The position numbers and the translations under genes were made by a program. A DNA stretch of 63,098 nucleotides, counting the filler. It is 3 parts of 3 records of this genome, joined end to end, with 100 filler letters (N's around TTAATTAATTAA, not from the genome) between each part and the next. Parts side by side here need not be neighbours in the genome. Positions count along the whole stretch, not along the records: positions 1 to 26,344 come from SRR31156797_11380; 2 more parts are not named here. The stretch is one strand, 5' to 3'. The notes beneath the pieces were generated by a model. It ran no database searches. It was not told where the DNA came from and was given only the letters and a program-made list of their open reading frames with translations. This document shows positions 2-15,624 of the stretch, in pieces; position 1 is the first letter of the stretch, and each line of letters opens with the position of its first letter.

Positions 2-904
2 ATGGATAGGGTATTCCTGGATGGACATGCAGAGGATAACCACGTAATCCATAGCCTCACCATAAACCAAAAATCCATCCTTCGGCGAAAAGGTCAACGC
101 ATCTTTTTTAACCGGGTGGTCCCCCTTAAAGCGGGAAAAAACCTTATCACCGTTAAGGCCGCGGATGCAGCCGGAAATATATCCACCCGGGAACTGGTTG
201 TCACCCGGCACATCCCCAAAGCCCTTCACCTGGCCGAACGTCTCAGTATGACGGTATTCCCTTTTGAGCAGAAGGGGAAGGTTCCGGAAGCAAGTCTTTC
301 ATTTCAGGAAAATTTGACGGATGCCCTGCTTGATCGAAAACGGTTCCGCCTCATTGAAAGAGAAAAGCTGGACCTGATCCTTCAAGAGCAGAAGCTCAGC
401 CGCTCCAAACTCATCGATAAAACCACCGCACTCAAGTTAGGCCGGCTGGCGGCCGCGCATACCATCGTCGCCGGAACCATCGTGGAATCCGGCATGGGTG
501 TTGAGATCATCGGCCGTGTCATTGACACCGAGACCTCTGAAATCCTGGCCAGTGAAGATGTTTACGATGAAATAAAGAATCTCCGGGGCTTGAAAAATCT
601 GGCCGAGGGCATGGCCATCCGGATACACCGCAAATTCCCCTTAGTGGACGGCACGGTCATCAAGCAAAGCGGCAAGTGGATCACTACGGACCTGGGGAGG
701 GAAAAAATCGGTCTTCAGCGGCGGCTGATCGTTTACCGGGAGGCGCCGGTGAAACATCCGGCCACCGGAAAAAACCTCGGATGGGACAACAAAATCCTGG
801 GACGGGCTCGAGTGGTTCAAGTCATGCCCGGTATGTCAAAAGCTGAGATTGTAGATGGTATTGCAACGTCAATGGCGCCGTTTGACAAGGTGATCAGCCA
901 GTAG
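2..904 (+). CDS. CsgG/HfaB-like (curli-assembly/TolB-N type) periplasmic protein, 5'-truncated by the window edge, with preceding Ig-like segment
   Basis: ORF with RFRLIEREKLDLILQEQKLS...TALKLGRLAAAHTIVAG...RVIDTETSEILAS, the typical CsgG-family pattern; N-terminal VPLKAGKNLITVKAADAAGN Ig-like strand. Confidence 0.75.
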   Translation: MDRVFLDGHAEDNHVIHSLTINQKSILRRKGQRIFFNRVVPLKAGKNLITVKAADAAGNISTRELVVTRHIPKALHLAERLSMTVFPFEQKGKVPEASLSFQENLTDALLDRKRFRLIEREKLDLILQEQKLSRSKLIDKTTALKLGRLAAAHTIVAGTIVESGMGVEIIGRVIDTETSEILASEDVYDEIKNLRGLKNLAEGMAIRIHRKFPLVDGTVIKQSGKWITTDLGREKIGLQRRLIVYREAPVKHPATGKNLGWDNKILGRARVVQVMPGMSKAEIVDGIATSMAPFDKVISQ

Positions 905-920
905 TGCAGGGAGAAGGGTG

Positions 921-3089
921 ATGGAGAAAGTCGCTCACGGACGGGAAATTCTACATATGGAGGTGGCCAGGGAAGGGAATCGCATCAAGCTCTGCGTCTA
1001 TGAAGAGGAACCGGGGCAGGTTACATCCATCCAGCAATATGAAGAGACGAACGTGAGCATGGAGCGCATCGACTCCCGCTGCCGAGAAATCATTGAGACC
1101 CTTAACAAAGTCAATGGCAGAGGTTTGGTTTCAAGGGAGAATTTAGCAAGGTTGCGGGAAATCGGGCAGATTTTCTCCGACGAACTGCTTACCCTGACTG
1201 TCAAGGAGAAACTGAGGGATTCCAGGGCGGAACATCTGGTCATGCATCTGGATGATCAATTGGTTCACGTCCCCTGGGAACTCCTTTTTGACGGCCGGCA
1301 CTTTCTCTGTCGAAGATTCGGCATGGGCCGTCTGGTGAAAACCCGGCAGACGGTGAGTAAAGGGATGGCCCGTGTTTTGGCCCGACCGCTGAAAATGCTG
1401 GTACTGGCCGATCCGAGAGGAGATCTGAAAGGCGCCTATAACGAAGGGATCTGGATTCGCGATACCATGGATCTGCACAAGGATTGGGTCAATGCCACCC
1501 TCCGTTCCGGAGATCTCACCCCGGATTTTATCAAACAAAAGATCCGGAATTTTGACTTGATTCATTTTGCGGGACACTCGGATTACGATCCCCGAAATCC
1601 GGCGGAAAGCGGGTGGCGCCTGAGCGGCGGCAGTCTCAAAGCCGCTGATGTGAAAAAAATGGCGGGCACGGGCCCCATGCCGGCCCTCATCTTCTCCAAT
1701 GCCTGCCAATCGGCCCGGACCGAAGAGTGGGGATTGAGGGAATCTTCCCAGGAAGAGATTTTCGGTTTGGCCAACGGGTTCCTCCTGTCCGGCGTAAAAC
1801 ATTTTGTGGGGACTTTCTGGGAAATACTGGATGAACCGAGCAGCCGTTTCGCCTCTGAGTTCTATAAGTGCTTCCTGTCCGGCATGACCATGGGTGAAGC
1901 CGTACGCGGTGCAAGGCATACCATCATTCAGGAATACGGCGAGGAGAATATGGTATGGGCAAGCTATCTCCTCTACGGCGACCCCACCTCAAACTACAGG
2001 GATCAGATTGAGGGAGGCACACCATGGGAAAGATTTGAACCTGTTTTTACAGACCCGCCGGGCGGAGCGCCTTCAAATGATATCCGCGGTCCCAGGCCCC
2101 ATGATGTTACCCAAGGGGAAAAGGGCCCAAAGAGGAGAAGCGGCTGGATGGCCCTTGCGGCAGGGATCCTTATGATTGCCGCCGTACTGCTTTGGGGATA
2201 CCCGGGATTCTTACTACTTGACACTGCAACATCCCGGCGTGAGGCGGCAGCCTATCACCGTCAGGGGGATTTCCATAAAGCCTTGAATGCCTGCCCGACC
2301 TTGGACCAGAGGGTTTCGGCGTTCAGGAAAGAAATAGAAAAGAGAGCCGACATGTCCCTTGATGGGGAAAAGCGGGCCCGCATCGACCGAATGATCCGGG
2401 AGTTGGTGGAAACCATGACGCCTGAGCCGCCATCGGATCAAAGGGATCATTGGACTTCAAAGCCCCTCACCTTATGGGTCACGGAATTCGGCATCCCCGG
2501 GCATTCCCAACAGGAAGGAAAAGAGAAGTTCCTGATGGCAGGCATTCAGGATCAATTGATTCAGCACGGCCGGGTGCGCGTGGTGGAACGGGCGCTTCTG
2601 GATAAACTCCTTGAGGAATTGAAGCTGGGCACCTCCCAACTGGCGGATAAAGGGACCATGCTTTCCCTGGGCCGAATTCTGGCGGCCCGGCTGGTTTTGG
2701 TGGGAAAGGCCATCTATTCGGGATCCCGGCTCCGGGTTTCCATGCGCCTGATCGAAACCGAAACCGGACGTATCGCGGCCGCGATCAACGAAACCTTCCT
2801 TGCGGCTGTTCCCGCTTCCACCTTATCTAAAAAATTGTCCGAAAACCTGTTAATCAAATTGAATGAAGCCTATCCCCTTCGGGGAAAGATTGTGAAAGTA
2901 AACGGTGATGAAGTTGAATTGAACATCGGGCATTTGGCCGGCATCCGGAAAGGCCGGCGATTCGGCGTTGTGGGTGAAGACGCGCGTCTGGAGGTCGTCT
3001 CCGAACAACCCGAAAGGGCCTTTGCCAGGGTCATTGGGGGAAATCCCCGGCTGACCGATGGCATGCGGGTTGAAGCAGCAAGTGACTGA
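921..3089 (+). CDS. CHAT-domain (caspase-like) protease with single TM helix and C-terminal CsgG-like domain
   Basis: LVHVPWELL, IHFAGH (catalytic His), FSNACQS (catalytic Cys), GLANGFLLSGV, WASYLLYGDP; TM WMALAAGILMIAAVLLWGY; C-terminal RVRVVERALLDKLLEELKLG...RLIETETGRI; RBS GGAG upstream. Confidence 0.85.
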   Translation: MEKVAHGREILHMEVAREGNRIKLCVYEEEPGQVTSIQQYEETNVSMERIDSRCREIIETLNKVNGRGLVSRENLARLREIGQIFSDELLTLTVKEKLRDSRAEHLVMHLDDQLVHVPWELLFDGRHFLCRRFGMGRLVKTRQTVSKGMARVLARPLKMLVLADPRGDLKGAYNEGIWIRDTMDLHKDWVNATLRSGDLTPDFIKQKIRNFDLIHFAGHSDYDPRNPAESGWRLSGGSLKAADVKKMAGTGPMPALIFSNACQSARTEEWGLRESSQEEIFGLANGFLLSGVKHFVGTFWEILDEPSSRFASEFYKCFLSGMTMGEAVRGARHTIIQEYGEENMVWASYLLYGDPTSNYRDQIEGGTPWERFEPVFTDPPGGAPSNDIRGPRPHDVTQGEKGPKRRSGWMALAAGILMIAAVLLWGYPGFLLLDTATSRREAAAYHRQGDFHKALNACPTLDQRVSAFRKEIEKRADMSLDGEKRARIDRMIRELVETMTPEPPSDQRDHWTSKPLTLWVTEFGIPGHSQQEGKEKFLMAGIQDQLIQHGRVRVVERALLDKLLEELKLGTSQLADKGTMLSLGRILAARLVLVGKAIYSGSRLRVSMRLIETETGRIAAAINETFLAAVPASTLSKKLSENLLIKLNEAYPLRGKIVKVNGDEVELNIGHLAGIRKGRRFGVVGEDARLEVVSEQPERAFARVIGGNPRLTDGMRVEAASD

Positions 3090-3132
3090 AATTCTGACAT
3101 TCCGTTTTATTGAGGGTGGAGGGATTAATAAA

Positions 3133-6100
3133 ATGCATAAAACAGGGGTGCCATATTTAAAACGACGTCTGATCCAAAACGTTTTTGCGGCTGTGGTATC
3201 GGTTTCCGTTTTTTTTACGGTCGTTCCTGGATCCCATGCCGATCTCAGTTCAGGGCTGATCGCTCACTACCCATTAAACGGCAATACCATTGATGAAACA
3301 TCAAATTATCCCGCGACTGCGTACAATGTCGAGTGGCAGTCCGGGAAATTGGGTGAGGCGGCCTATTTTGGCGGAGACAGGGAAACCGTTCAGTATATCG
3401 ATTGCGGCAATATTCCATTGCCTCCCCGGTTTACCGTTTCCGCCTGGGTGCAGTCCAACGGTTTCAACATCAATGGAGACAGCATGACCATAATGGAAAA
3501 GCGAAATTTTCCGTCCGGCATGGAAATTCTTCATTTTGGCATTGAATTAAACCGAAAAATCAAATGGGAACAAGGTTTTGGTTCTTCAGGGGTGGACTTC
3601 TACAGTGATGTTGAATTTCCCTTCGATGAAGATTGGCACCTTGTGGGCATAACCTATGATCAACAATTTCAGACAATCTATCTGGACGGGGTTGAGGTGG
3701 CACAGCAGGTTCAAAGCGCCCCTGTTCCATCTTATGATAGCCACCTTTATCTGGGAATCGAGGTGGACAATCATTTTCCACAAAGAATCTGGAACGGGCG
3801 CATCGATGACGTTCGAATTTATAACCGCGCACTTTCCTTGGCTGAAATTCAGGGACTCTATTCGGGTCTTTCCCCTTCCGGTCCAACGGTTACAACCGCT
3901 GTCGTATCTTCCATAACATCGAACAGTGCTTCAAGCGGCGGAAGCGTAACATCCGATGGTGGGGCCGCCGTGGAGGCCAGAGGCGTATGTTGGAGCACCT
4001 CGCCGAACCCCACCATCGAAAACAATAAAACAATGGATGGAAGTGGGACAGGCGCTTTTACCAGCGACATCAACGGATTGTCTCCCAGTACACAGTATTA
4101 CGTCAGAGGCTATGCAACGAATAGGGCCGGTACGGGGTACGGTGATCAAATCTCTTTTTTCACGGCCCCTGATATTCCGGCCAATGTGCGGGGAATACCT
4201 GGGAACCGATCGGTCACCCTCATGTGGGATGCCGATACGGAGTCCAACCTGGCCGGTTACAATGTGTATCGAAGTCAAGCTTTAAACGGCGTATATATGA
4301 AGCTGAATACATCTCCAATGGGCGGTTTGTATTACGACGATCCTGGATTAAGCAATTTCCTGGATTACTTCTACAAAGTTACGGCAATGGATACGAATGG
4401 CAACGAGAGCGGACAATCAGATCCCGTGAAAGTCGTTCCCTCAAGTCCAGGGCCGACAAACATTAGCGGGATTATCTCCCAAAACACCACCTGGACCCTG
4501 GCGGGAAATCCTTACATGGTAACCGAGAATATAATGGTGAATGAAGAGGTGACACTGACCATTGAACCTGGGGTAACAGTGAAGTTTGGCAACAATAAGG
4601 GGCTTCAAGTAAACGGCCAACTGATCGCCCGGGCAACCGGTGAAGAGCAGATTCTAATGACATCGAACCTGGCCTCACCGTCAGCAGGCGACTGGAATTA
4701 TATTTTTTTTACAGATTCGGCCATTGATGCAACCTTTGATATTGACGGTAATTATGTAAACGGATCCATAATCCAATATTGCATCATTGAATACGGAGGC
4801 GGGATTGACGGCGCATTGAAATGCCAAGACTCCTCCCCTTTTATCACGAATTCGATCATACGCCACAGCGCAGCGGACGGGCTATACCTGGCAGGTGATT
4901 CAAATACCTTTTCCGCCGTAATCCATAGCAACAGGATCTGTAATAATGGAAATGATGCGATACATCTATATGGATGGGGATGCAATGGAACTATTTTAAT
5001 AAATGATAACCAGCTGGAAAACAATGGCGGATGGGGATTTAACGGGTCTGATTGCTCCTATGTCAGTTTAGACATTACAAGCAATAAAATATCGCAAAAT
5101 AGCGGTGGCCTAACAATGTGGGCGCTCACTAAAAACACAATTTCAGGAAACTGCATAACCGGTAATCAGGGAAAAGCTATAAACGCACACGGTTCTGGAG
5201 AATTTTTCGTTAAAAACAACATCATATCCGAAAACATGACAGGCGTTAATTTTGGATGGAGCGGTAATTGGGTATTTGAAAATAATATCGTGTCGGATAA
5301 TTTATCGGAGGGTGTCCGTTTAACGGATTCCGATGGAACCTATAATATTATAATGAATCATATTATCAGGAATATATCCAATTCGACAACCGGATTATAT
5401 GATAAAACGGATGATTCAAACGGTAATATTGATTATAATACGTTCAATGGAAACATTTCTAATGAAAAAGATTCATCCACCATCAGTATGGTTAGCCCTT
5501 TCTCCTTCAATAACAACAATATATTTCAAAACATATCCAGTTTCGACCTCTATAATGATAGAAACGCAGGATCCCCTAAATTAAATGCAGAAAATAATTA
5601 TTGGGGAACATCTTCGGAAGTCGACGTAGCGGAAAAGATATACGATTGGCTGGATGATGCGTCTAAAGGCTTTGTTGATCACACTCCTTTCCTGACATCC
5701 CCCGACACGACCGCCCCCATCTCCCCTCCCGCAGATCTATCAGTTATAATCTCTCCCACCAGCATGACCCTCAATTGGAAGCCAAATCCCGAGTCCGATG
5801 TATCGGGATACAGGGTCTATTATGATACGGATCAATCTGGATTTCCGTATGCAAACGGAGTCGATATAGGCAATACCACCGGTTACACGATTGATGGCCT
5901 TGTTCAGGGCGTCACCTACCATGTTGCAGTGACGGCCTATGATTCCGATTACGATCCCGCAGACGACGATTCCGATACCATTGTTAACGAAAATCAGACC
6001 AATGGAAACGAAAGCTGGTACAGCAATGAAAAAACCGTTGAACCCACAAATCCTCCCGATATCCCTTCTTTGCCGGCGCCAGATAATGGCGCTTCCCATG

Positions 6101-9100
6101 TCTCCATTGTCACTGGGCTTTCTTGGACCGGCGGAGATCCGGATGCGGGAGACACCGTAACCTATGATATCTACTTCAGCATGTCAAATCCTCCCGCCTT
6201 GGTTTCGACCGGCCAGTCCTCCACCGCTTATGATCCCGGTTCGCTGTTAAACTGTACAACCTACTACTGGAAAATCGTTGCCACGGACAACCATGGCGCG
6301 CAAACCCAAGGTCCGATCTGGCGTTTCTCCACGGATGGGGATTCGGACTCGGACGGTATGTTGGACAGTTGGGAGTTTGATCGATTCGGAGATCTTTCCC
6401 ACGACGGTACCGTAGATTCCGATGGGGATGGACTGACGGACCGGGAGGAGTACGAGAACCTCACGGACCCCAGCGATTCGGACAGTGATGATGACGGCAT
6501 GCCCGACGGGTGGGAGGTGGAACATACCCTGAACCCGAATGAAAACGATGCGGGGGAAGATCCCGACCGCGATAAATTCACCAACGGGAGGGAATACCAG
6601 GATCGGACGGATCCCCAAGACGGATCCTCCCATCTTATTTTTCCGGTGGTAACGGGACGACTCCCCGATACGGGTCAAAAAAAATGCTACAATAATTCCG
6701 AGGAGATACCCTGTCCTGAGCCGGGAAATGATTTCTATGGCCAGGATGCCGGCTATACCATCAATCCACCTTCTTATATCAAAATGGATGCTCAGGGAAA
6801 TTATCTGCCGGACAATACTACGGAATGGGCGATGGTTCGGGACAATGTGACGGGATTGATCTGGGAGGTGAAGACCGATGACGGGTCGGTTCATGACAAG
6901 GACAAACAGTACACCTGGTATGACAGCAACCCTGCCACCAACGGCGGGAACGCCGGAACGCCGGGAGACGGAACGGACACGGAAGACTTCCTAAATACCC
7001 TGAATGCGGAAAGTTTCGGAGGGTATTCCGATTGGCGCCTTCCGACCATAAAGGAACTGGCTTCAATGGCAAATTTGGGGACGTTTGATCCAGCAGTAAA
7101 TAATGATTATTTCCCAAATACGGTGTCGTCCACCGATTCCCATTATTGGTCCTTTTCCACCAATGCCAGCAATTCTGCAAAGGCGTGGTATTTCCTTTTC
7201 TACTATGGCTACGATTACCGCAATTACTATGATAAGTCCCATTCTTATTATGTTCGTGCCGTGCGAGGTGGACAGGTTGGGTTATCTGACACTTTGACCG
7301 ATAATGGTGATGGTACCGTCACGGATAAATCGACAGGTCTTATGTGGCAGCAGTCTGGAACTGAGAGCATGAATTGGGAAACGGCTCTTTCTTATTGCGA
7401 TGAATTAACCCTTGCCGGCTACTCGGACTGGCGTCTTCCCAATTGTTCAGAATTGAGATCAATTGTCGATTACACCGTTTTCAACCCCTCAATAAACACC
7501 CAATATTTCCCTGATATGTTGTCTCTCAATTATTGGGCCTCTTCAAACTATGCAATTTCTGACAGCATGGCCTGGGGCGTCGATTTGGGTTTGGGCTATA
7601 GCAATCTCAGCACCAAAACTTATTCTTATTATGTAATTGCCGTTCGTGGCGGACAACTTCAATTTCCGGATCATTTATTGATCTTGAACCCTGTCCAGGC
7701 ATCCAACTGGAAAAAAGGGGATGCCATGTCCATTGAGTGGGATACCCGGAGCATTTCCGGAAATGTATCCATATCCATATCGCGCCAAGGCGGCAAAACG
7801 GGCACTTTCGAAACCATCGTTGAATCTACCGAAAACAATGGGTCGTACGAATGGATCGTAACGGGGCCCATATCCGCCAATTGCGCTTTGAAGATCGAAC
7901 CCCTGAACGACTCTTCTAAAAGCACAATCCAGAGCCTTTTCACCATCGCCTCCACCATACCTCCGTCAGCCACCATTTCCGGCGTTCCGACCAGCCCCAC
8001 CAACCAGACCTGCGCAACTTTCACCATCGGCGGTAATGCCATCACTTCCTACAAATATAAACTGGATGATGACGACTACGGAGATGAAACCCTTATCGCC
8101 CTGCAAATCACGCTTGCCGATCTGGCTGAGGGAACACATACCGTTTATGTTCTGGGAAAAGATGCCGTAGGCTACTGGCAAACCGACCCCACAACCGCCT
8201 TATGGACCGTGGATACCATCAAGCCGGGCACACCCGTTGTAACGGGTCCCGCCCAGACCGGCAACGGAAAGCCCACCTGGACCTGGATTTCCGGCGGCAA
8301 CGGCAACGGTACATTCCGCCACAAGTTAGACGATGCCGATCTCACAAGCGGGGCTTTTGAAACGACAAAAACCGAGTACACACCGGTTGACGCACTTTCC
8401 GAAGGATCTCACACTCTTTATGTACAGGAGCGGGATCAGGCCCTTAACTGGTCGGATTCAGGCAGTTTCACGATTCAGGTCGATTTACAGGCGCCAAATC
8501 CCCCTGCCGACCTGACATTGGCCCCGGAAGATGACAGCGGTATCAGCGACAGTGATTGCGTCACACGAAACACGACGGGCCTGACCATCACCGGATCTGG
8601 TGAAGTGGGTGCCACAGTGGAACTTTTCGATAATGGCGAAGCAATACCCGGTGCTTGGGCGACTGCTTCAGCCGGCGCTTTTGCCATCGACATATTGTTG
8701 GAAGCGGGTGAACATAGTATTACCGCCACCCAGAAGGATCCCGGGGGAAATGTCTCCGGCCCTTCAGCGCCCCTTCTTGTTACCGTGGATACCCAAAAGC
8801 CCTCCGCACCCACGGGACTCACCCTCTCCTCCGCAGATGACAGCGGGACGAGCAATAGCGACTCTATTACGCGGAACACCAGCGGTTTGACCATCACGGG
8901 CCACGGTGAAGAAGATTCCATTGTTAAAGTCTATGACAATGGTGGCGAGATTTCCGGCGCGGAGACAGCTGTATCGAATGGTTTTTTTAGTATCGATATT
9001 TCCCTTTCTTCAGGCAATCATAATATCACCGCCCGGCAGGGGGATGTGGCCGGAAATATTTCCGACAGCGGCACAGGTCTTTCCATATTGGTGGATCCGA

Positions 9101-12100
9101 CACCGCCGATGACCGCTGCAAACCCCGAGGGGAAGGCTTACGGGTCTGCACAGCAGGTTGTTCTGACCTGCAACGACGGCACGGGTTCCGGTTGTGACGG
9201 TACCTATTACACTTTAAATGGAGATGAACCGGATACGGCCGATCCAGAATACCATGGCCCCATCCCAGTCGGTACCGCTACCACCGTAAAGTTCTTTTCA
9301 AGGGATGTGGCCGGAAATTCGGAGGCCTTTAAGACGGAAACATACACAATTGATACCGTGGGACCCGAAATCACCATTACCAGCCCCCAAGACGGTTCGA
9401 GGAAAATCCCGGTCCTCGAAATAACCGGTAGAGCCATGGACGATTTGACGGATGTTACTCAGGTCTCGTTACTCCTTGATACGGAGATCGGTGGCAGCAC
9501 CTATTATATGAAGATGGATGGAGGACTTACATCAATTCCCGTATGGCATGGGGCCACAGGGACGGATCCGTGGCAATTGAATACGGAACAGGTGGGTTGG
9601 AGCGAAGAAAAAACCTACACCATTACGGTGCGCGCAATCGACGGTGCGGACAACCCATCGGAAAACAGTTTTTCCTTCACCTATGGCAACCCCAAGGAGA
9701 CATCCACCATCACCTGCTTACTTTCCGGTGAAAGCATAACCCTTGGTGAACCGTTGACGGTTACGGGGCAAATCAGCCCGCGGCCCGATCCCGGCGAAAC
9801 GGTGTTGGTCATCCTGAGTCCCGCCAGCGGCGGCCCTTCCGACGACGGCAGCACCATTACCAAGATCGATGGATCCTTTGAATATGCCGTACCTTGCGGA
9901 CTTCTTTACAAGGCAGACACCTGGGAAGTCCGGACCAGTTGGGGGGGTGACCATAAACTGGAACCGGCCAGCAGCGATACCAAGACCCTGACAGTTGAAA
10001 AGGCCCGATCCAGGGTCACCCTGGATGTCAGTTCCCATGCCGTAAAGCTGGGTGAAACATTTGATATTGCAGGTAAATTCACCCCTATACCCCATTGCGG
10101 CAGCGGCCTTTTTGATATTCCCTTAACCGTGATTGTATCCGGACCGGAGCTGAGGGAGGCAAAGGTCATCAACATTTCAACAATCGATCAATACGGTCAT
10201 TTCCTGGTTCGGGATTATGACGGCCTCAACGGCCTTGGCCAATGGACAATCCAGGTGAATTTCGCGGGGAACGATGCCTACGAACCCGCCGGGAGCGACT
10301 CCCTCAAGGTAAGCGTTCTTGAAACCGCCGGGTATGCCGTCATTGTAGAGGGAAAAGTTTCGAGCGAAGAAGGGTTGGCATCCCATAACAAAACCGCCAA
10401 TTTTGTTTATGAAAAAATGAAAAACAGGGGGCTCCTCCATGAGGATATCCAATATTTCAATTATAACGTAAATCAGGAAGGCGTTTCCGGCGTGCCCTCT
10501 AAAGCGGCCATCGGAAACGCCATTCAAAATTGGGCCAAGGAAAAAATGAACGCCAAGGCCGCCAATCTGTATATTATATTGCTGAACCACGGCCTGGATG
10601 AAAGATTTTTCATTTACCCGGATACCATTACCGCCACTGACCTTGCCGGATGGCTCAACACCCTTCAGGCCGGCCTGTGGGGGCAGGCGGCGGAACAGGA
10701 GATCATCGTGATGCTGGGATTTTGTCATTCCGGTTCCTTTATGGAGGATCTTTCCGGAAACAATCGGGTGATTATTGCCAGCGCTGCCGAAGATGAGGTT
10801 TCCTTCAAGGGGCCCCTTGACGAGGACGGTATTCGGGAAGGGGAATACTTTGTGGCGGCCTTTTTCAGGGAAGTCTCTTTCGGAAAGTCCATTAAGGAAT
10901 GTTTTGAAAATGCAACAAAGCTCACGGAAACCTTTACCCAGTGGGGACACAAAAAGGATGTAACCGCTCCCTACTTCGACCTTTCCCCCCAGCATCCGCT
11001 TCTGGATGATAACGGCGACGGCATGGGCAGCAATGACTTATCCCTTTCAGGCGCCGACGGTGCGCTGAGCGAAAACCTCTTCATCGGTGTCAGCGGCATC
11101 ACGGGCAACGATCCCGGAGATGTCATGGTGGACCGGGTGACCGAGACGAAATTTCTTGCCGCCGAAGGGGATTCCGCCTTGTTGTGGGCCACGGTGGACG
11201 ACCACAGCCGGCTGAGGAGTATCTGGGTGGAAGTCAAACCTCCCGGCTATGAACCGGCCGGCGGCGGTTCCGGCCAGGTGGAAATGGACCTGCTTAAAAA
11301 GGCGGGGGCCCTGAACGGCGACCGATATGAATGGAACATGGGCGGGTTTTCAAAGGCCGGCGCCTATCAGCTCTTTTATTTTGCCAAGGACGACCATACC
11401 GGACATGTCTCTCCCCTGAAGGAATCAAGGGTATACAAAGCCAAAGATGGAAACCGACCGCCCGCCCCTTTCTCCCTCATTGCCCCTGATAACGGAGCCA
11501 CCGTAAGGGATACCTTCATATTGGTATGGGAAGAAACCATGGATCCGGATGGAGATGCCCTGACCTACACGGTACTGGTGTCCAAAGATGACAGTGCCTT
11601 TGCCGATCCGATCCGAAAGGAGGGCCTGTTGTGGGGCGGTTGCTTCATGTCTCCTTCGGACGGCATAGAGGATCTGAGCCACTATTACTGGAAAGTCCTG
11701 GCCGTCGATTCATACGGGGCCGTAAGGGAATCAAACACAAGGGAGCTTTACACCAACAATACCAACCTCATCCCCGGCTGGCTGACCGGCAATGTTTACG
11801 ACACGGATACCGGGGAGCCCATGGAAAATGTGGACATTGTACTTTCAGGCGCCGGCAATTGCATCATATCCACGAGGTCCGGCGGCAATTACCTGTCTCA
11901 ACTGTATCCCGGCAATTATACCCTTACGATCCATGCGGACGGCTACAATCCCATGAGCCGCAGCATCTACATACCGGAAGGTCAAACCGTAACCTTGAAT
12001 ATCGGGCTCACCGCCACAGCGACGACAACAACAACCACAAGTACGACAACAACCACAAGTACGACGACCACCACGAGTTCAACCACCACAACAACAACCA

Positions 12101-12396
12101 CCACCACAACAACAACCACGACCAACGCCCCAACCACAACCACGCCTACCACCACCCTTTCCAGTACGACCACAACGCTTATGGACATATGTCCGGATTG
12201 CTCAAACGGTTCGGTCACAAAGGTTACATTTCCAAAAGGCGTCGAATGCCGATGCAAAAATGATAAAACCCTGACCATCGGTCCGGACGTAATAATACCC
12301 AAAGGGGCCAAAGTCGTCTTTGAGGCTCCCTGTGTAAAAATGATGAGCGTTATCCAAGCGGAAGAAGGTTCAACGGTTCACATACGGCAAAAATAG
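3133..12396 (+). CDS. Giant secreted multidomain protein: LamG, FN3, right-handed beta-helix, Ca-binding DxDxDG repeats, 2x DUF1566, Ig-like repeats, C13/caspase-fold peptidase, carboxypeptidase-regulatory-like domain, Thr-rich linker, Cys-containing C-terminal domain
   Basis: ORF 3058..12396; likely start ATG 3133 with signal peptide ending SHA|DL; motifs GLIAHYPLNGN/GRIDDVRIYNRALS, DSDGDGLTD, DNVTGLIWE/DWRLPT, LLNHG...GFCHSGSF, QHPLLDDNGDG. Confidence 0.85.
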   Translation: MHKTGVPYLKRRLIQNVFAAVVSVSVFFTVVPGSHADLSSGLIAHYPLNGNTIDETSNYPATAYNVEWQSGKLGEAAYFGGDRETVQYIDCGNIPLPPRFTVSAWVQSNGFNINGDSMTIMEKRNFPSGMEILHFGIELNRKIKWEQGFGSSGVDFYSDVEFPFDEDWHLVGITYDQQFQTIYLDGVEVAQQVQSAPVPSYDSHLYLGIEVDNHFPQRIWNGRIDDVRIYNRALSLAEIQGLYSGLSPSGPTVTTAVVSSITSNSASSGGSVTSDGGAAVEARGVCWSTSPNPTIENNKTMDGSGTGAFTSDINGLSPSTQYYVRGYATNRAGTGYGDQISFFTAPDIPANVRGIPGNRSVTLMWDADTESNLAGYNVYRSQALNGVYMKLNTSPMGGLYYDDPGLSNFLDYFYKVTAMDTNGNESGQSDPVKVVPSSPGPTNISGIISQNTTWTLAGNPYMVTENIMVNEEVTLTIEPGVTVKFGNNKGLQVNGQLIARATGEEQILMTSNLASPSAGDWNYIFFTDSAIDATFDIDGNYVNGSIIQYCIIEYGGGIDGALKCQDSSPFITNSIIRHSAADGLYLAGDSNTFSAVIHSNRICNNGNDAIHLYGWGCNGTILINDNQLENNGGWGFNGSDCSYVSLDITSNKISQNSGGLTMWALTKNTISGNCITGNQGKAINAHGSGEFFVKNNIISENMTGVNFGWSGNWVFENNIVSDNLSEGVRLTDSDGTYNIIMNHIIRNISNSTTGLYDKTDDSNGNIDYNTFNGNISNEKDSSTISMVSPFSFNNNNIFQNISSFDLYNDRNAGSPKLNAENNYWGTSSEVDVAEKIYDWLDDASKGFVDHTPFLTSPDTTAPISPPADLSVIISPTSMTLNWKPNPESDVSGYRVYYDTDQSGFPYANGVDIGNTTGYTIDGLVQGVTYHVAVTAYDSDYDPADDDSDTIVNENQTNGNESWYSNEKTVEPTNPPDIPSLPAPDNGASHVSIVTGLSWTGGDPDAGDTVTYDIYFSMSNPPALVSTGQSSTAYDPGSLLNCTTYYWKIVATDNHGAQTQGPIWRFSTDGDSDSDGMLDSWEFDRFGDLSHDGTVDSDGDGLTDREEYENLTDPSDSDSDDDGMPDGWEVEHTLNPNENDAGEDPDRDKFTNGREYQDRTDPQDGSSHLIFPVVTGRLPDTGQKKCYNNSEEIPCPEPGNDFYGQDAGYTINPPSYIKMDAQGNYLPDNTTEWAMVRDNVTGLIWEVKTDDGSVHDKDKQYTWYDSNPATNGGNAGTPGDGTDTEDFLNTLNAESFGGYSDWRLPTIKELASMANLGTFDPAVNNDYFPNTVSSTDSHYWSFSTNASNSAKAWYFLFYYGYDYRNYYDKSHSYYVRAVRGGQVGLSDTLTDNGDGTVTDKSTGLMWQQSGTESMNWETALSYCDELTLAGYSDWRLPNCSELRSIVDYTVFNPSINTQYFPDMLSLNYWASSNYAISDSMAWGVDLGLGYSNLSTKTYSYYVIAVRGGQLQFPDHLLILNPVQASNWKKGDAMSIEWDTRSISGNVSISISRQGGKTGTFETIVESTENNGSYEWIVTGPISANCALKIEPLNDSSKSTIQSLFTIASTIPPSATISGVPTSPTNQTCATFTIGGNAITSYKYKLDDDDYGDETLIALQITLADLAEGTHTVYVLGKDAVGYWQTDPTTALWTVDTIKPGTPVVTGPAQTGNGKPTWTWISGGNGNGTFRHKLDDADLTSGAFETTKTEYTPVDALSEGSHTLYVQERDQALNWSDSGSFTIQVDLQAPNPPADLTLAPEDDSGISDSDCVTRNTTGLTITGSGEVGATVELFDNGEAIPGAWATASAGAFAIDILLEAGEHSITATQKDPGGNVSGPSAPLLVTVDTQKPSAPTGLTLSSADDSGTSNSDSITRNTSGLTITGHGEEDSIVKVYDNGGEISGAETAVSNGFFSIDISLSSGNHNITARQGDVAGNISDSGTGLSILVDPTPPMTAANPEGKAYGSAQQVVLTCNDGTGSGCDGTYYTLNGDEPDTADPEYHGPIPVGTATTVKFFSRDVAGNSEAFKTETYTIDTVGPEITITSPQDGSRKIPVLEITGRAMDDLTDVTQVSLLLDTEIGGSTYYMKMDGGLTSIPVWHGATGTDPWQLNTEQVGWSEEKTYTITVRAIDGADNPSENSFSFTYGNPKETSTITCLLSGESITLGEPLTVTGQISPRPDPGETVLVILSPASGGPSDDGSTITKIDGSFEYAVPCGLLYKADTWEVRTSWGGDHKLEPASSDTKTLTVEKARSRVTLDVSSHAVKLGETFDIAGKFTPIPHCGSGLFDIPLTVIVSGPELREAKVINISTIDQYGHFLVRDYDGLNGLGQWTIQVNFAGNDAYEPAGSDSLKVSVLETAGYAVIVEGKVSSEEGLASHNKTANFVYEKMKNRGLLHEDIQYFNYNVNQEGVSGVPSKAAIGNAIQNWAKEKMNAKAANLYIILLNHGLDERFFIYPDTITATDLAGWLNTLQAGLWGQAAEQEIIVMLGFCHSGSFMEDLSGNNRVIIASAAEDEVSFKGPLDEDGIREGEYFVAAFFREVSFGKSIKECFENATKLTETFTQWGHKKDVTAPYFDLSPQHPLLDDNGDGMGSNDLSLSGADGALSENLFIGVSGITGNDPGDVMVDRVTETKFLAAEGDSALLWATVDDHSRLRSIWVEVKPPGYEPAGGGSGQVEMDLLKKAGALNGDRYEWNMGGFSKAGAYQLFYFAKDDHTGHVSPLKESRVYKAKDGNRPPAPFSLIAPDNGATVRDTFILVWEETMDPDGDALTYTVLVSKDDSAFADPIRKEGLLWGGCFMSPSDGIEDLSHYYWKVLAVDSYGAVRESNTRELYTNNTNLIPGWLTGNVYDTDTGEPMENVDIVLSGAGNCIISTRSGGNYLSQLYPGNYTLTIHADGYNPMSRSIYIPEGQTVTLNIGLTATATTTTTTSTTTTTSTTTTTSSTTTTTTTTTTTTTTNAPTTTTPTTTLSSTTTTLMDICPDCSNGSVTKVTFPKGVECRCKNDKTLTIGPDVIIPKGAKVVFEAPCVKMMSVIQAEEGSTVHIRQK
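12010..12177 (+). repeat. ACN-codon low-complexity tract encoding a poly-Thr linker
   Basis: (ACA/ACC/ACG)n runs in frame in the giant ORF. Confidence 0.9.
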
Positions 12397-12482
12397 GCGG
12401 TACGGTGGAACCGTGGAAAATCTTTTCAAGAAATATTATTGGAAACTTTAACAGGTAAAATGCAAAACCGGATCGGGCTATC

Positions 12483-13847
12483 ATGAATCAATCAATCTGG
12501 AGACCCAATGAAAAAGTCCTTTTTTTATTCTTCTTTCTATTTTTTTACCCCGGCGCTTTTTTTCCCCCGGGTTCTGAAGCCATGGCGGGATCGCCCCTTC
12601 AGAGGATTGAAGTCCCGTCGTCGCCCAATCCCGTGGGTTCCGGGGCCCGGGCCCTGGGGATGGGAGGGGCCTTTATCGCCGTTGCGGATGACGCCACGGC
12701 GGCCTCCTGGAACCCCGGAGGTCTCATCCAATTGGAGACCCCGGAGGTTTCCATGGTGGGTGCCTATTTCCATCGAAGCGAAGAGAATACTTTCGGCACC
12801 GATCCGGAGGCCTCCGGTGAACAGTCCGTCCACGCCGCGAGGCTCAACTATCTCAGCGCAACCTACCCTTTCACCCTTTTTGATCGCAACATGGTGGTTT
12901 CCGTCAATTACCAGAACCTCTACGATTTCAGCCGGGAATGGCGGTTTCAATTGAACCGGTCTTCCCAAACGATTTCCAAAAACGAGCATATTGATTATCA
13001 GCAACACGGGACCCTCTCCGCCTATGGGCTGGCCTACGCCGTACAGGTGATTCCGGAGCTTTCTTTCGGTTTTACCCTGAATATGTGGAAAAACGGGATT
13101 TATCCGAACCGGTGGGTGCAGAATGTCCAGACCCGGGGTTCCGGGACCTTCCACGGCGACCCCTTTGTCAACGGGTATGAGAGCAGGGATCAATATACCT
13201 TCAGCGGTTTTAACGCCAACCTGGGCGTTTTGTGGAACGTAAACGGCAAACTGACGGTTGGCGTAGTTTACAAAACCCCTTTTACCGCTGATCTCAGGCG
13301 GAGCATGAAGTTCAGCTCATACCTGGATTTTCCGGATACGCCCCACATCGATAACAAGGTCAGCGGCAGCTACAATGACGACGGCAGGCTGGATATGCCC
13401 ATGAGCTACGGGATAGGGGCGGCTTACCGGTTTTCCGATGCATTTACCCTGGCGCTGGATATCTACCGTACCCAATGGGGGGACTACATCCACGAGGATT
13501 CCAAGGGCCGTAAAACTTGTCCCATTACCGGGCTGCCGGCCAGTGAATCGGATGTGGAGGCCACCCACCAGGTCCGGGTCGGCGGGGAATATCTGTTTAT
13601 CAGGGAAGACTATGTAATTCCCCTGCGAGGGGGTGTTTTTTACGATCCCTCTCCGGCCCAGGGAAGCCCGGACGACTATTTCGGATTCAGCGTGGGTTCC
13701 GGGATTGCCTACGGCCGGTATGTCTTTGACCTGGCCTATCAGTACCGGTTCGGCAATAATGTGGGGGATTCCATCCTGACGGATTTTGATTTCTCCCAGG
13801 ATGTGCATGAGCATACGGTTTATGCCTCGGTTATCGTTCACTTTTGA
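12483..13847 (+). CDS. FadL/TodX/PorV-like outer-membrane beta-barrel
   Basis: Signal peptide; GSGARALGMGGAFIAVADDATAASWNPGGL hatch motif; C-terminal Phe. Confidence 0.85.
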   Translation: MNQSIWRPNEKVLFLFFFLFFYPGAFFPPGSEAMAGSPLQRIEVPSSPNPVGSGARALGMGGAFIAVADDATAASWNPGGLIQLETPEVSMVGAYFHRSEENTFGTDPEASGEQSVHAARLNYLSATYPFTLFDRNMVVSVNYQNLYDFSREWRFQLNRSSQTISKNEHIDYQQHGTLSAYGLAYAVQVIPELSFGFTLNMWKNGIYPNRWVQNVQTRGSGTFHGDPFVNGYESRDQYTFSGFNANLGVLWNVNGKLTVGVVYKTPFTADLRRSMKFSSYLDFPDTPHIDNKVSGSYNDDGRLDMPMSYGIGAAYRFSDAFTLALDIYRTQWGDYIHEDSKGRKTCPITGLPASESDVEATHQVRVGGEYLFIREDYVIPLRGGVFYDPSPAQGSPDDYFGFSVGSGIAYGRYVFDLAYQYRFGNNVGDSILTDFDFSQDVHEHTVYASVIVHF

Positions 13848-14047
13848 TGGAGAAAGGGAGTGTCCGTTTTATTTAGAGCCGACAATATCTCCTCTTCAAT
13901 ATCCTCTCCGTTCACCTTGATTTTTTGCTGCATGATTTCTAAGCTGATTTCCGTTATCAACACATCTGGATTCAGTTTCGGCGCCAATCGGACCGCCGAT
14001 TCACCTGAATCCGCTACCCCTACCACGTGGTATGACATGTGCCGCAA
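13838..14047 (-). pseudogene. Receiver (REC) domain remnant
   Basis: YHVVGVADSGESAVRLAPKLNPDVLITEISL resembles REC beta2-beta3 but lacks the phospho-Asp and the rest of the domain. Confidence 0.5.
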
Positions 14048-14265
14048 ACCTTAAAACGCAAAGTATGAGATAGGGCGTTTTAATTAATGTGCCGTTTTAT
14101 TGCTGAACTGATCGTAAAAAATTACATTATCAACAAAATCAAAAAGTTGATTGACTTGGAACAACATTCTGGGTAGATTTGAGGCCCTTGAAAAATGCCC
14201 TTCCGATATTTATTCCTGAAAATTGTAGGAAGACGGCTGCAGGGTTGATCAGTAATAAGGGCGCT

Positions 14266-14898
14266 ATGAATTTTACAGGTGAAAAGGATGTCCTGGTACA
14301 ATGCATCCGGGGAAACGGGCTGGCCCAGGAGGCGTTTGTCAAAATGTTTTCGGATCTGGTATACAGATCGGTCCAGCATGCGCTGAAGGTGAACCATGTC
14401 CCTTATAATGAAAAAGATTTGGAGGATCTGCACAACACGGTTTTCCTTAAGCTTTTCGAAAAAGGATGCTGGAAACTGAAACAGTATAAAGGTACCAATG
14501 GATGCAGCCTGAAGTCGTGGATTCGGCTTATAACGGTCCGTCTGGTGATCGATTCCCTTCGTAAATCCAATACCGATGCATTGACCAAGGAAGGGCGCTC
14601 CCTGCCCCTTGAGGCCATCGCTCAAATGAAAGAAGAGGGGCCGGAAATCTGGCGCTTGATTGAAAAAAAGGAGCAGATTCAAGTGATAACGGAAGGGCTT
14701 GAGAAGATGTTGCCAAGAGACAAACTTTTTTTAAAGCTCCATTTTTTTAAGGGCCTCTCAGTACCGAAAGCAGCCGCTGTTATGGGGATCCCGGAGACCA
14801 ATGCCCATTCATTAAAACATCGCGCCGTCAAAAGATTAAAAAAGGAAGTCGTCCAAAATTCAAGAAAGGATCTTGTAAAGGATAAAGGTGCAAGATAA
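14266..14898 (+). CDS. ECF-type RNA polymerase sigma factor
   Basis: Region 2 DLEDLHNTVFLKL...SLKSWIRLITVRLVIDSLRK; region 4 LPRDKLFLKLHFFKGLSVPKAAAVMGIPETNAHSLKHRAVKRLK; ATG 14266 chosen over TTG 14179. Confidence 0.9.
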   Translation: MNFTGEKDVLVQCIRGNGLAQEAFVKMFSDLVYRSVQHALKVNHVPYNEKDLEDLHNTVFLKLFEKGCWKLKQYKGTNGCSLKSWIRLITVRLVIDSLRKSNTDALTKEGRSLPLEAIAQMKEEGPEIWRLIEKKEQIQVITEGLEKMLPRDKLFLKLHFFKGLSVPKAAAVMGIPETNAHSLKHRAVKRLKKEVVQNSRKDLVKDKGAR

Positions 14899-14988
14899 GT
14901 TTCGCTTTTTCGTCTATAATAATGAAACGCGGCATAAATGGAATAAAATGGTAATTGAGAAAAATTTTTGCTCAACCGGAGTCACGTT

Positions 14989-15624
14989 ATGAAAACAGAA
15001 TGTATCAAGGAAGAAATTTTCATGGATTACATGGAAAATCGTCTTCCTTTAAAGCGGCGTGATGCGGTCGAGAAACACATTGCCGAATGCGACGATTGTC
15101 TCAGTGTCCTGTCCGTGATGGCCGAGGACCATGAAATTTCGGCTCTGGAACCGGTGCCGGGGCACGTGACCCGGCAGGCTGTCAGGAAAGTGAAGGATCT
15201 GGCGAAAAAGTCTATCCGGGGAAAGTTGTCCGGATATGTGCGTCATTTTGCCGACACTTGTTCCGATGCATTAACAGGAACCCGGACATTCAAAACGCCG
15301 GCGCCTGTAGCTGTTCGGAGCAGGCGGAAGAAGGTAAACGATGATGTGGTCCACTTGAGGCATACTGTTCTGGATTTAAAGGCTGAAGTTGAAATTGAAA
15401 AAAAGAATGAGACTGAAGCGTCCGTCCGGGTAAATTTGACCGGCAAAGTCGGACCGGCAAACCATGTAAGAATATCACTCATTCTTAAAGGCCGTGAAAT
15501 CGCCTCCTATCTGGATTATGATGCTCTGTTTGAAGATGTTCCTCCTGGCCAGTATGTTCTTAGGTTTACTGTTTTTAGAGAGAAAAAAAACAAGATAGTA
15601 GAGTTTCCTATCCAAGTCTCCTAA
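14989..15624 (+). CDS. zf-HC2 (ZAS) anti-sigma factor, soluble, with C-terminal beta-sandwich
   Basis: HIAECDDC (HxxxCxxC) directly downstream of the ECF sigma; no hydrophobic TM segment. Confidence 0.8.
   Translation: MKTECIKEEIFMDYMENRLPLKRRDAVEKHIAECDDCLSVLSVMAEDHEISALEPVPGHVTRQAVRKVKDLAKKSIRGKLSGYVRHFADTCSDALTGTRTFKTPAPVAVRSRRKKVNDDVVHLRHTVLDLKAEVEIEKKNETEASVRVNLTGKVGPANHVRISLILKGREIASYLDYDALFEDVPPGQYVLRFTVFREKKNKIVEFPIQVS

Follow-up and report, generated by a model that had tools for sequence, protein, structure and literature searches.

A candidate trans-envelope module linking a membrane-anchored CHAT protease with an extracytoplasmic function sigma factor and its soluble anti-sigma factor

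How can a sigma factor of the extracytoplasmic function (ECF) type be released from an anti-sigma factor that has no membrane anchor, and does a protease encoded in the same gene cluster take part in it? ECF sigma factors are known to be released through regulated intramembrane proteolysis, partner switching, redox changes, and phosphorylation. To our knowledge, release by a caspase-fold protease has been characterised only in Craspase, and it has been proposed for DdvA, a fused anti-sigma factor. The question is raised here by six open reading frames (ORFs) at bases 2-15624 of a 63,098-nucleotide stretch of DNA (the window), all on the + strand. The window consists of three parts from three records of one genome, joined end to end with 100 filler letters between them, and these parts are not necessarily genomic neighbours; positions 1-26,344 come from SRR31156797_11380. 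The ORFs encode part of a lipoprotein (ORF1), a membrane protein with a CHAT protease domain (ORF2), a giant secreted protein (ORF3), an outer-membrane barrel (ORF4), an ECF sigma factor (ORF5), and a soluble anti-sigma factor (ORF6). The original prediction, made from the sequence alone, had described six co-oriented genes with named domains; ORF calls and scans of Pfam and NCBIfam upheld the coordinates, strand, and domains, but the first gene proved to be incomplete. The gene content, its linkage, and an invariant catalytic dyad point to a trans-envelope module in which the CHAT protease would cut the soluble anti-sigma factor, thereby freeing the ECF sigma factor, a proposal for which we hold belief and doubt in balance. 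The six genes are part of a widespread bacterial module, for which we found no published description.

Family matches were taken from the Pfam and NCBIfam scans, and membrane segments were assigned from Kyte-Doolittle means over 19 residues. The CHAT family (PF12770, clan CD, caspase fold) matched residues 89-355 of ORF2 with 121.5 bits against a cut-off of 24, and His220 and Cys263 were unchanged across 93 aligned CHAT family members. After the CHAT domain, one hydrophobic segment was found in ORF2 and in 18 of 19 relatives. Because one helix follows the CHAT domain, and because most relatives start with a class III cyclase and have no signal peptide, the N-terminal half is predicted to be cytoplasmic. 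This topology puts the catalytic domain in one compartment with the sigma and anti-sigma factors, and it agreed with the earlier claim that the His/Cys dyad lies on the N-terminal, cytoplasmic side of a single transmembrane helix. An AlphaFold model of ORF2, with a mean predicted local distance difference test (pLDDT) score of 80.4, was compared with known folds by Foldseek. Its N-terminal half best matched Csx29, the protease of Craspase (8eey_B, E 4e-13), and also matched separases, DdvA (8rot_A, 7.5e-8), and gingipain R.

Relatives of ORF2 were collected by a word-index search, in which 8000 candidates were scored and 1062 matched at E <= 0.001. Among the best 120 of these 1062, nearly all were about 1050 amino acids (aa) long and carried a class III nucleotide cyclase (PF00211), CHAT, tetratricopeptide repeats (TPRs), and LpoB/CsgG; 11 of the 120 listed had no record of the cyclase domain, as counted by eye. 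The closest genome-held relative, P0014 from a Desulfatiglandales metagenome-assembled genome, aligned in two blocks: residues 1-462 of ORF2 with 215-677 at 69% identity, and 449-719 with 770-1046 at 57%. The N-terminal 214 residues (the class III cyclase) and about 93 TPR residues found in the closest relatives are missing from ORF2. By alignment, ORF2 is a shortened member of a ~1055-aa family with the order cyclase, CHAT, transmembrane helix, TPR, and LpoB-like domain. Since the spacing between ORF1 and ORF2 was the same as in the relative, the loss is clean and in-frame, and the gene is not broken.

For the sigma factor, ORF5 matched TIGR02937 with 66.1 bits (cut-off 42.9) and Sigma70_r4_2 with 33.1 (cut-off 25.7), which identifies it as an ECF (group 4) sigma factor, a type that has sigma-2 and sigma-4 regions only; its likely start is Met30 because relatives align from about residue 28-35. 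ORF6 matched zf-HC2 with 27.1 bits against a cut-off of 22.2. In an alignment of 121 anti-sigma factors, each of the zinc ligands, namely H37, C41, and C44 of the H-x3-C-x2-C motif and C12 as the fourth ligand, was kept in at least 90% of the sequences, while R117, R168, and S180 were invariant. The model of ORF6 (mean pLDDT 83.4) consisted of helices at 15-103 and a beta-sandwich at 127-217 with a coil between them, and the pLDDT fell below 50 at 108-120, a coil stretch that includes R117. An invariant residue in a linker predicted to be disordered resembles a protease site or a docking motif, and we consider Arg117 a candidate cleavage or recognition site.

Neither ORF6 nor ORF5 contained a membrane segment, the best 19-residue mean in ORF6 being 0.67. 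Likewise, no hydrophobic stretch of 19 residues reached the cut-off in the 12 copies from other loci, in 4 database relatives (the only matches of a word-index search for ORF6 homologues), or in 148 representatives. With no hydrophobic segment in ORF6 and 164 relatives, the earlier statement that the anti-sigma factor lacks a transmembrane helix was extended to its family, and an RseP-type route is not available because a membrane helix is missing from every anti-sigma factor examined. When the profile was run in full against 1.84 billion representatives, it gave 272 anti-sigma matches at E <= 1e-30 and 1458 at 1e-10, mostly 205-250 aa long and aligned end to end; the family thus holds at least 272 representative clusters at the stricter threshold. 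The clusters nearest to ORF6 in the ESM Atlas were all named "hypothetical protein", and a fold search with ORF6 gave generic Ig/FN3-type sandwiches only (best E 8e-4). In one relative, from locus L052, the beta-sandwich matched CarboxypepD_reg (E 0.0022). A metagenome scan with a single ORF6-type protein gave two loci, matched in the zinc-finger part only and with no other module gene.

Table 1. Positions of the module genes and their features in the window.
Feature	Position	Strand	Description or basis
ORF1	2..904	+	3' part (300 codons) of lipoprotein gene; gene starts before window
ORF2	918..3089	+	Membrane CHAT protease, 723 aa
CHAT domain of ORF2, predicted cytoplasmic	1182-1982	+	Pfam
Catalytic His220 codon	1575..1577	+	Invariant in 93 sequences
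Catalytic Cys263 codon	1704..1706	+	Invariant in 93 sequences
Single membrane-spanning segment of ORF2, residues 407-436	2136..2225	+	Kyte-Doolittle mean 2.07; model helix from residue 411
FlgT-like alpha/beta + beta-barrel module of ORF2	2466-3077	+	After short helical periplasmic stretch
ORF3	3058..12396, likely start Met26 at 3133	+	Giant secreted protein
ORF4	12483..13847	+	FadL/TodX-type outer-membrane barrel
ORF5	14179..14898, likely start Met30 at 14266	+	ECF sigma factor
ORF6	14968..15624, likely start Met8 at 14989	+	Soluble anti-sigma factor
Zinc-type anti-sigma domain of ORF6 (C12, H37, C41, C44)	N-terminal	+	Helical; zf-HC2 match, alignment
Disordered linker of ORF6	15277-15345	+	Followed by C-terminal beta-sandwich; model
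Arg117 codon	15316..15318	+	Invariant in 121 anti-sigmas; predicted disordered linker

Conservation of the neighbourhood was analyzed by a protein search in 401 genomes of the relative's phylum. With two candidates scored per genome, 47 genomes matched at E <= 1e-20, and the CHAT part was matched in 25 genomes, as read from the match table. Twenty places were fetched with up to 20 kb around them, and together with L001 these 21 loci were analyzed by tblastn, by blastp on ORFs, and by Pfam for doubtful flanks. The CHAT relatives at the 21 loci showed 32-69% identity. Within the fetched sequence, an ECF sigma factor together with an ORF6-type zf-HC2 protein was found in 12 of the loci (L035, L036, L038-L043, L045, L047, L049, L052), the barrel in 14, and the lipoprotein in 15. 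The linkage of the sigma/anti-sigma pair with CHAT occurred in at least five gene orders. They include lipoprotein, CHAT, giant protein, barrel, sigma, and anti-sigma in the window; sigma, anti-sigma, CHAT, barrel, and lipoprotein (L039, L041, L042); sigma, anti-sigma, CHAT, lipoprotein, and barrel (L040, L049); lipoprotein, sigma, anti-sigma, and CHAT, the barrel gene being on the opposite strand (L035); and barrel, a gap, then sigma, anti-sigma, and CHAT (L047).

The reverse search was conducted with a profile of the 121 anti-sigma relatives in the same 401 genomes. It matched 65 genomes at E <= 1e-8, mostly through the zinc-finger part. Sixteen matches spanned 200 or more of the 245 profile positions, and for 13 of them a CHAT match lay alongside on the same contig (read from the table). 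Conservation of the neighbourhood had been set beforehand as a test that could refute the original prediction, and both searches found the genes to be conserved neighbours. The pair and the CHAT module might nevertheless be unrelated neighbours held together by inherited synteny, with no functional coupling; related lineages may account for many of the loci sampled, and no promoter motif ties the genes together. However, the linkage was kept through rearrangement, through divergence to 32% protein identity, and in both search directions, which argues that it reflects function rather than chance, and we regard mere synteny as extremely unlikely.

At six loci (L038-L043) the module directly follows the housekeeping gene recJ. 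At L037, where the pair is absent, recJ adjoins the CHAT gene itself, as though the pair had been gained or lost at one fixed place in the chromosome.

We next consider the envelope side of the module. The CsgG family matched ORF1 with 52.9 bits (cut-off 20.8), but only over profile positions 36-104 of 210, and LpoB matched it with 24.8 bits. In ORF2, residues 539-619 matched LpoB (28.2 bits) and CsgG (25.5 bits; profile positions 46-97 of 210 only). The periplasmic part of the ORF2 model comprised an alpha/beta domain (517-651) and, after it, a beta-barrel (655-720), and in Foldseek it matched FlgT of the flagellar H-ring (3w1e, E 3.8e-12; LPHT ring 8z5n) and TolB; no CsgG chain was among the matches listed. 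The earlier description of oligomerising CsgG-like domains thus did not hold: these are FlgT/TolB-N/LpoB-type periplasmic modules. Identity with the CsgG curli channel was rejected, since only the small alpha/beta domain of the CsgG profile was matched and the membrane-spanning part was not.

ORF1 shared 73% identity with the last 300 residues of L001:3-1934. Its start aligned at about residue 315 of this relative, and the window begins inside the preceding codon. It contains an Ig-like domain, a CsgG-N/LpoB/FlgT-M-like alpha/beta domain, and a C-terminal beta domain. Full-length lipoprotein relatives were 685-710 aa long (~690), with a signal peptide and then a Cys in a lipobox-like setting in 12 of 12 examined, and they carry TPRs, Ig-like domains, the alpha/beta domain, and the C-terminal beta domain. 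The periplasmic modules of the lipoprotein and the CHAT protein are paralogous and about 33% identical. ORF4 matched Toluene_X/FadL with 50.7 bits (cut-off 29.7), has an N-terminal hydrophobic segment at 12-30 corresponding to a signal peptide, and shows a conserved N-terminal SSPNPVGSGARA motif. Its assignment to PorV/PorQ or BamG was rejected, as the NCBIfam matches stayed below the cut-offs (BamG 82.6 bits vs 250; PorV_fam 50 vs 90).

On this basis, we propose that the FadL-type barrel, the lipoprotein with its TPR, Ig-like, and FlgT-like domains, and the periplasmic FlgT-like module of the CHAT protein would form a sensing arm. A signal at the envelope would render the cytoplasmic, caspase-fold CHAT domain active, and this domain would cut the zinc-type anti-sigma factor, most likely in the disordered linker around Arg117. 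Transcription would then be driven by the freed ECF sigma factor, its targets probably being genes for large surface proteins nearby and perhaps also the module's own genes. In most family members, the class III cyclase before CHAT would add a second, cyclic-nucleotide output; ORF2, having lost the cyclase and part of the TPRs, would retain the protease arm only.

Several observations weigh against this proposal. The full CHCC zinc motif makes redox release of the anti-sigma factor possible without a protease, as is known for the anti-sigma factor RsrA. CHAT proteases share no single specificity and not all of them cut after Arg; Csx29 reportedly cuts after Met or Leu. A fused anti-sigma-CHAT form was not found among the longer proteins, which is weak evidence. 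The pair was absent at 9 of the 21 loci. Four of these end at contig ends (L001, L044, L046, L053), but at the other five (L037, L048, L050, L051, L054) the pair was missing though other genes fill the flank, which was read over 3-5 kb in L037, L048, L050, and L054 and over 1.8 kb to the contig end in L051. The genes in these flanks included recJ (L037), a cyclic-nucleotide-binding protein (L054), and a large secreted protein (L050). In G001, the genome of the closest relative, no anti-sigma match was obtained at E <= 1e-8, with 7 of 20 candidates scored and the contig ending just upstream of the module.

The three remaining full-length matches of the reverse search likewise had no adjoining CHAT gene. 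In L056 the contig is 3 kb long and stops after the pair; in L055 no CHAT gene lies within 12 kb, and a Tn3 transposase is nearby. In L057 (G298:C235), the pair is followed by two giants, both with MopE repeats, which are combined with a beta-helix in one and with an FGE-sulfatase domain in the other. A second contig of the same genome, L050 (G298:C107), holds CHAT, lipoprotein, and barrel genes, which are also flanked by MopE-repeat giants, and at both sites the giants have a membrane helix and a basic tail at their C-terminus. This split arrangement speaks for the proposed module, and it fits a plausible regulon made up of variable surface proteins.

The original prediction also had the freed sigma factor transcribe the genes of the giant protein and the barrel; no shared promoter motif was found in support of this. 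Pairs of 5-mers and 4-mers with spacers of 14-19 nucleotides were searched upstream of 12 genes (11 sigma genes and 1 lipoprotein gene heading a sigma operon), and the best pair occurred in 4 of 12, against 3 in each of 20 shuffles. The top pairs came from the conserved recJ end, and the intergenic regions of L038-L043 were short and unalike. Upstream of ORF5, a sigma-70-like site, TTGACT-17-TAGATT (9/12), was present at 14151-14179; such sites were common, with 30 found versus 17.9 expected.

The large neighbours of the module were compared in order to place ORF3. The original prediction had treated the giant protein as a fixed part of the system, which the comparison did not support: the large proteins differ from locus to locus, carrying NHL and C13-like domains (L001), BNR/sortilin (L035), LVIVD (L047), MopE repeats (L046, L050), or PKD/Ig (L049). 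Beside the recJ-associated modules of L039, L040, L042, and L043 there is no adjoining large protein, and L041 has only a 589-aa Lcl_C protein. Judged by gene content, the giant protein is a variable neighbour and not a core part of the module. ORF3 itself matched 13 families, including LamG, fn3, beta-helix, two Lcl_C, Big_13, and Peptidase_C13, and has a signal peptide, a CarboxypepD_reg-like domain, and a Thr-rich linker (tandem repeat 12025-12124). Its Peptidase_C13-like domain (legumain-type, caspase-fold; bases 10546-10926, residues 2497-2623) gave a weak match of 24.8 bits (cut-off 22.8). Inspection by eye showed an N-H-G and, further on, an F-C-H-S-G stretch, which may be the catalytic His and Cys motifs. 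C13-like domains recur in large neighbours of L001 and L054. The Cys-rich C-terminal domain of ORF3 (~70 aa, 12184-12393), which follows the Thr-rich linker, had no match in the family libraries used, its one relative being the C-terminus of the NHL/C13 protein L001:7831-11832 (E 9e-10); it may serve as a tag for sorting or anchoring. Among the large neighbours, the C-terminal tails are of unrelated types, either this Cys-rich domain (window, L001) or a membrane helix with a basic tail (L046, L050). A dedicated sorting machine for the giant protein was not supported, as the large neighbours share no common cargo tag.

Alternatively, the barrel, lipoprotein, and CHAT protein may constitute an envelope machine that, for instance, processes, anchors, or assembles large surface proteins. 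The pair would then only regulate expression, the anti-sigma factor would be freed by another cue, such as thiol oxidation at the zinc site or a partner switch, and CHAT would cut something else. Large secreted repeat proteins do flank L001, L035, L041, L046, L047, L049, L050, L054, and the window, and five loci have CHAT, lipoprotein, or barrel genes but no sigma pair. The complete zinc motif, the resemblance of the barrel to PorV/BamG-type FadL-fold proteins (below cut-offs), and that of the periplasmic modules to FlgT, a ring-forming structural protein, would fit as well. However, the CHAT domain is placed on the cytoplasmic side, away from secreted cargo; the flanking large proteins have no common family or sorting tail, and four of the modules beside recJ (L039, L040, L042, L043) stand without them. 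Moreover, a purely redox mechanism leaves the invariant Arg in the anti-sigma linker unexplained. We consider the envelope machine unlikely, though by no means negligible.

To place the proposed cleavage of the anti-sigma factor by CHAT among known systems, we compared the module with those nearest to it. In the passages of PMC10028731 drawn on here, Csx29 of the type III-E CRISPR system Craspase cuts Csx30 at position aa 427-429; Csx30 binds and inhibits an ECF-like sigma factor, and the cut frees it from inhibition (PMC10028731). As far as those passages go, this precedent is as the original prediction had stated it. As in Craspase, a cytoplasmic His/Cys CHAT protease is encoded here beside an ECF-type sigma factor and a soluble inhibitor. 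In contrast, the module has no Cas7-11, CRISPR RNA, or CRISPR array, so RNA-guided activation is impossible here. Its protease is membrane-anchored with a periplasmic sensor module, and its inhibitor is a zf-HC2 zinc anti-sigma factor with a beta-sandwich.

In Myxococcus xanthus, the cited passages of PMC11506125 describe DdvA as a membrane anti-sigma factor whose CHCC zinc domain holds DdvS, with a fused periplasmic TPR-CHAT part that has an incomplete active site; release of DdvS is proposed there to need RseP (PMC11506125). On that description, DdvA/DdvS and the present module have in common that a CHCC zinc domain holds the ECF sigma factor and that the signalling unit includes CHAT, consistent with the fold match given above. 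Here, however, the anti-sigma factor has no membrane helix, and CHAT is on a separate gene and faces the cytoplasm. In FecA-FecR-FecI, an outer-membrane barrel acts through a membrane-spanning transducer to release an ECF sigma factor. The proposed pathway follows the same barrel-transducer-sigma logic, but the barrel here is FadL-type with no TonB-dependent family match, the transducer is a protease and not an anti-sigma factor, and the anti-sigma factor is soluble.

HetF of Anabaena is said to cleave PatU3. It has an N-terminal CHAT domain, one membrane helix, and C-terminal TPRs in the same order as the present family and acts in cell division and heterocyst development; in the parts of the source used, no ECF sigma/anti-sigma pair, barrel, or FlgT-like module is described for it (PMC8406250). 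The uncharacterised ECF54 group, as presented in the sections of PMC7826278 used here, occurs in Actinobacteria only; the +1 gene there encodes a carboxypeptidase-regulatory-like protein, genes for a subtilase and for TPR-CHAT are close by, and no anti-sigma factor is recognised. Its control by proteolysis has been proposed, an idea taken up again in a review (PMC8999054). ECF54 resembles the module in joining an ECF sigma factor with TPR-CHAT, and the anti-sigma factor here ends in a beta-sandwich, with a CarboxypepD_reg match in L052 only. By contrast, the module has an anti-sigma factor, whereas those sections describe ECF54 without one. The ECF54 promoter motif given there, GTATCAG...CTCC (PMC7826278), was absent from the window, and no subtilase was among the Pfam matches of the window or the loci. 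The words CHAT, caspase, FadL, and CsgG did not occur in the main text of this ECF classification (PMC7826278). Full-text literature searches found no characterised example of the combination, as had been anticipated, with DdvA/DdvS and the ECF54 context as near precedents.

More broadly, and more tentatively than for the locus itself, we suggest that the family represents a widespread, CRISPR-independent form of surface signalling. A HetF-type membrane CHAT transducer and an outer-membrane lipoprotein, both bearing FlgT-like modules, would act with a FadL barrel to sense a cue from the envelope or from outside the cell, a family of soluble anti-sigma factors would be cut at the invariant linker Arg, and a fused cyclase would supply a further output in most members, all as part of the normal envelope physiology of sulfate reducers and related bacteria. 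If this is true, Craspase-like logic would exist as a free-standing, envelope-linked pathway, and the CHAT family would fuse proteolytic and cyclic-nucleotide outputs in one sensor. The module offers a testable protease-substrate pair with a candidate cut site.

Other gene arrangements were observed around CHAT members. In L054, which has no sigma pair, a cyclase-CHAT gene is followed by the lipoprotein gene, and a cyclic-nucleotide-binding protein and a Ser/Thr kinase-cyclic-nucleotide-binding fusion flank them (L054:2501-3217, L054:8681-10117). These neighbours hint at the cyclase as a second output of the CHAT family. In L048 and L051, also without the pair, a cytidylate-kinase-like + BON protein (L048:3398-4222, L051:13841-14665) is encoded directly upstream of an unusually long CHAT member (~1200 aa). 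In L045, a DUF4384 protein lies between sigma and anti-sigma, and three more CHAT proteins (976, 859, and 838 aa; 24% identity to ORF2) follow the module CHAT gene at L045:8116-17108.

Finally, we considered a conflict or defence system, in which a membrane sensor with cyclase and caspase-like effectors would answer attack, by phage or otherwise, with a response that is transcriptional or suicidal; CBASS/Pycsar, type III CRISPR, and DdvA-controlled islands are examples of such systems. In PADLOC, the cyclase of the relatives weakly matched Pycsar models (PycC, E 3.7e-9) and CHAT weakly matched BovA. Both characterised links between CHAT and ECF sigma factors, Craspase and DdvA, serve defence in the parts of the sources used, and a prophage lies 11 kb downstream in window coordinates. 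However, the PADLOC matches were weak and generic, with none for the lipoprotein, barrel, sigma, or anti-sigma. No Cas family was matched among 40 window ORFs scanned, there was no CRISPR-like tandem array in the window, and no Rfam match was obtained in 1-26000. The stable site beside recJ in L038-L043 and the barrel and lipoprotein partners fit envelope physiology better than a mobile island. We consider a defence role highly unlikely.

The prophage is an integrated T7-like element at 26609-54302 on the - strand. No RNA or DNA polymerase was found among its scanned ORFs of at least 120 aa, and the window contained no tRNA. The genes of the element encode a tyrosine integrase, a repressor-like HTH protein, RadC, the large terminase, a tail fibre with its assembly protein, and internal virion proteins, as well as the nozzle, tail tube, major capsid, scaffold, and portal proteins, an ATP-dependent DNA ligase, and a 5'-3' exonuclease.

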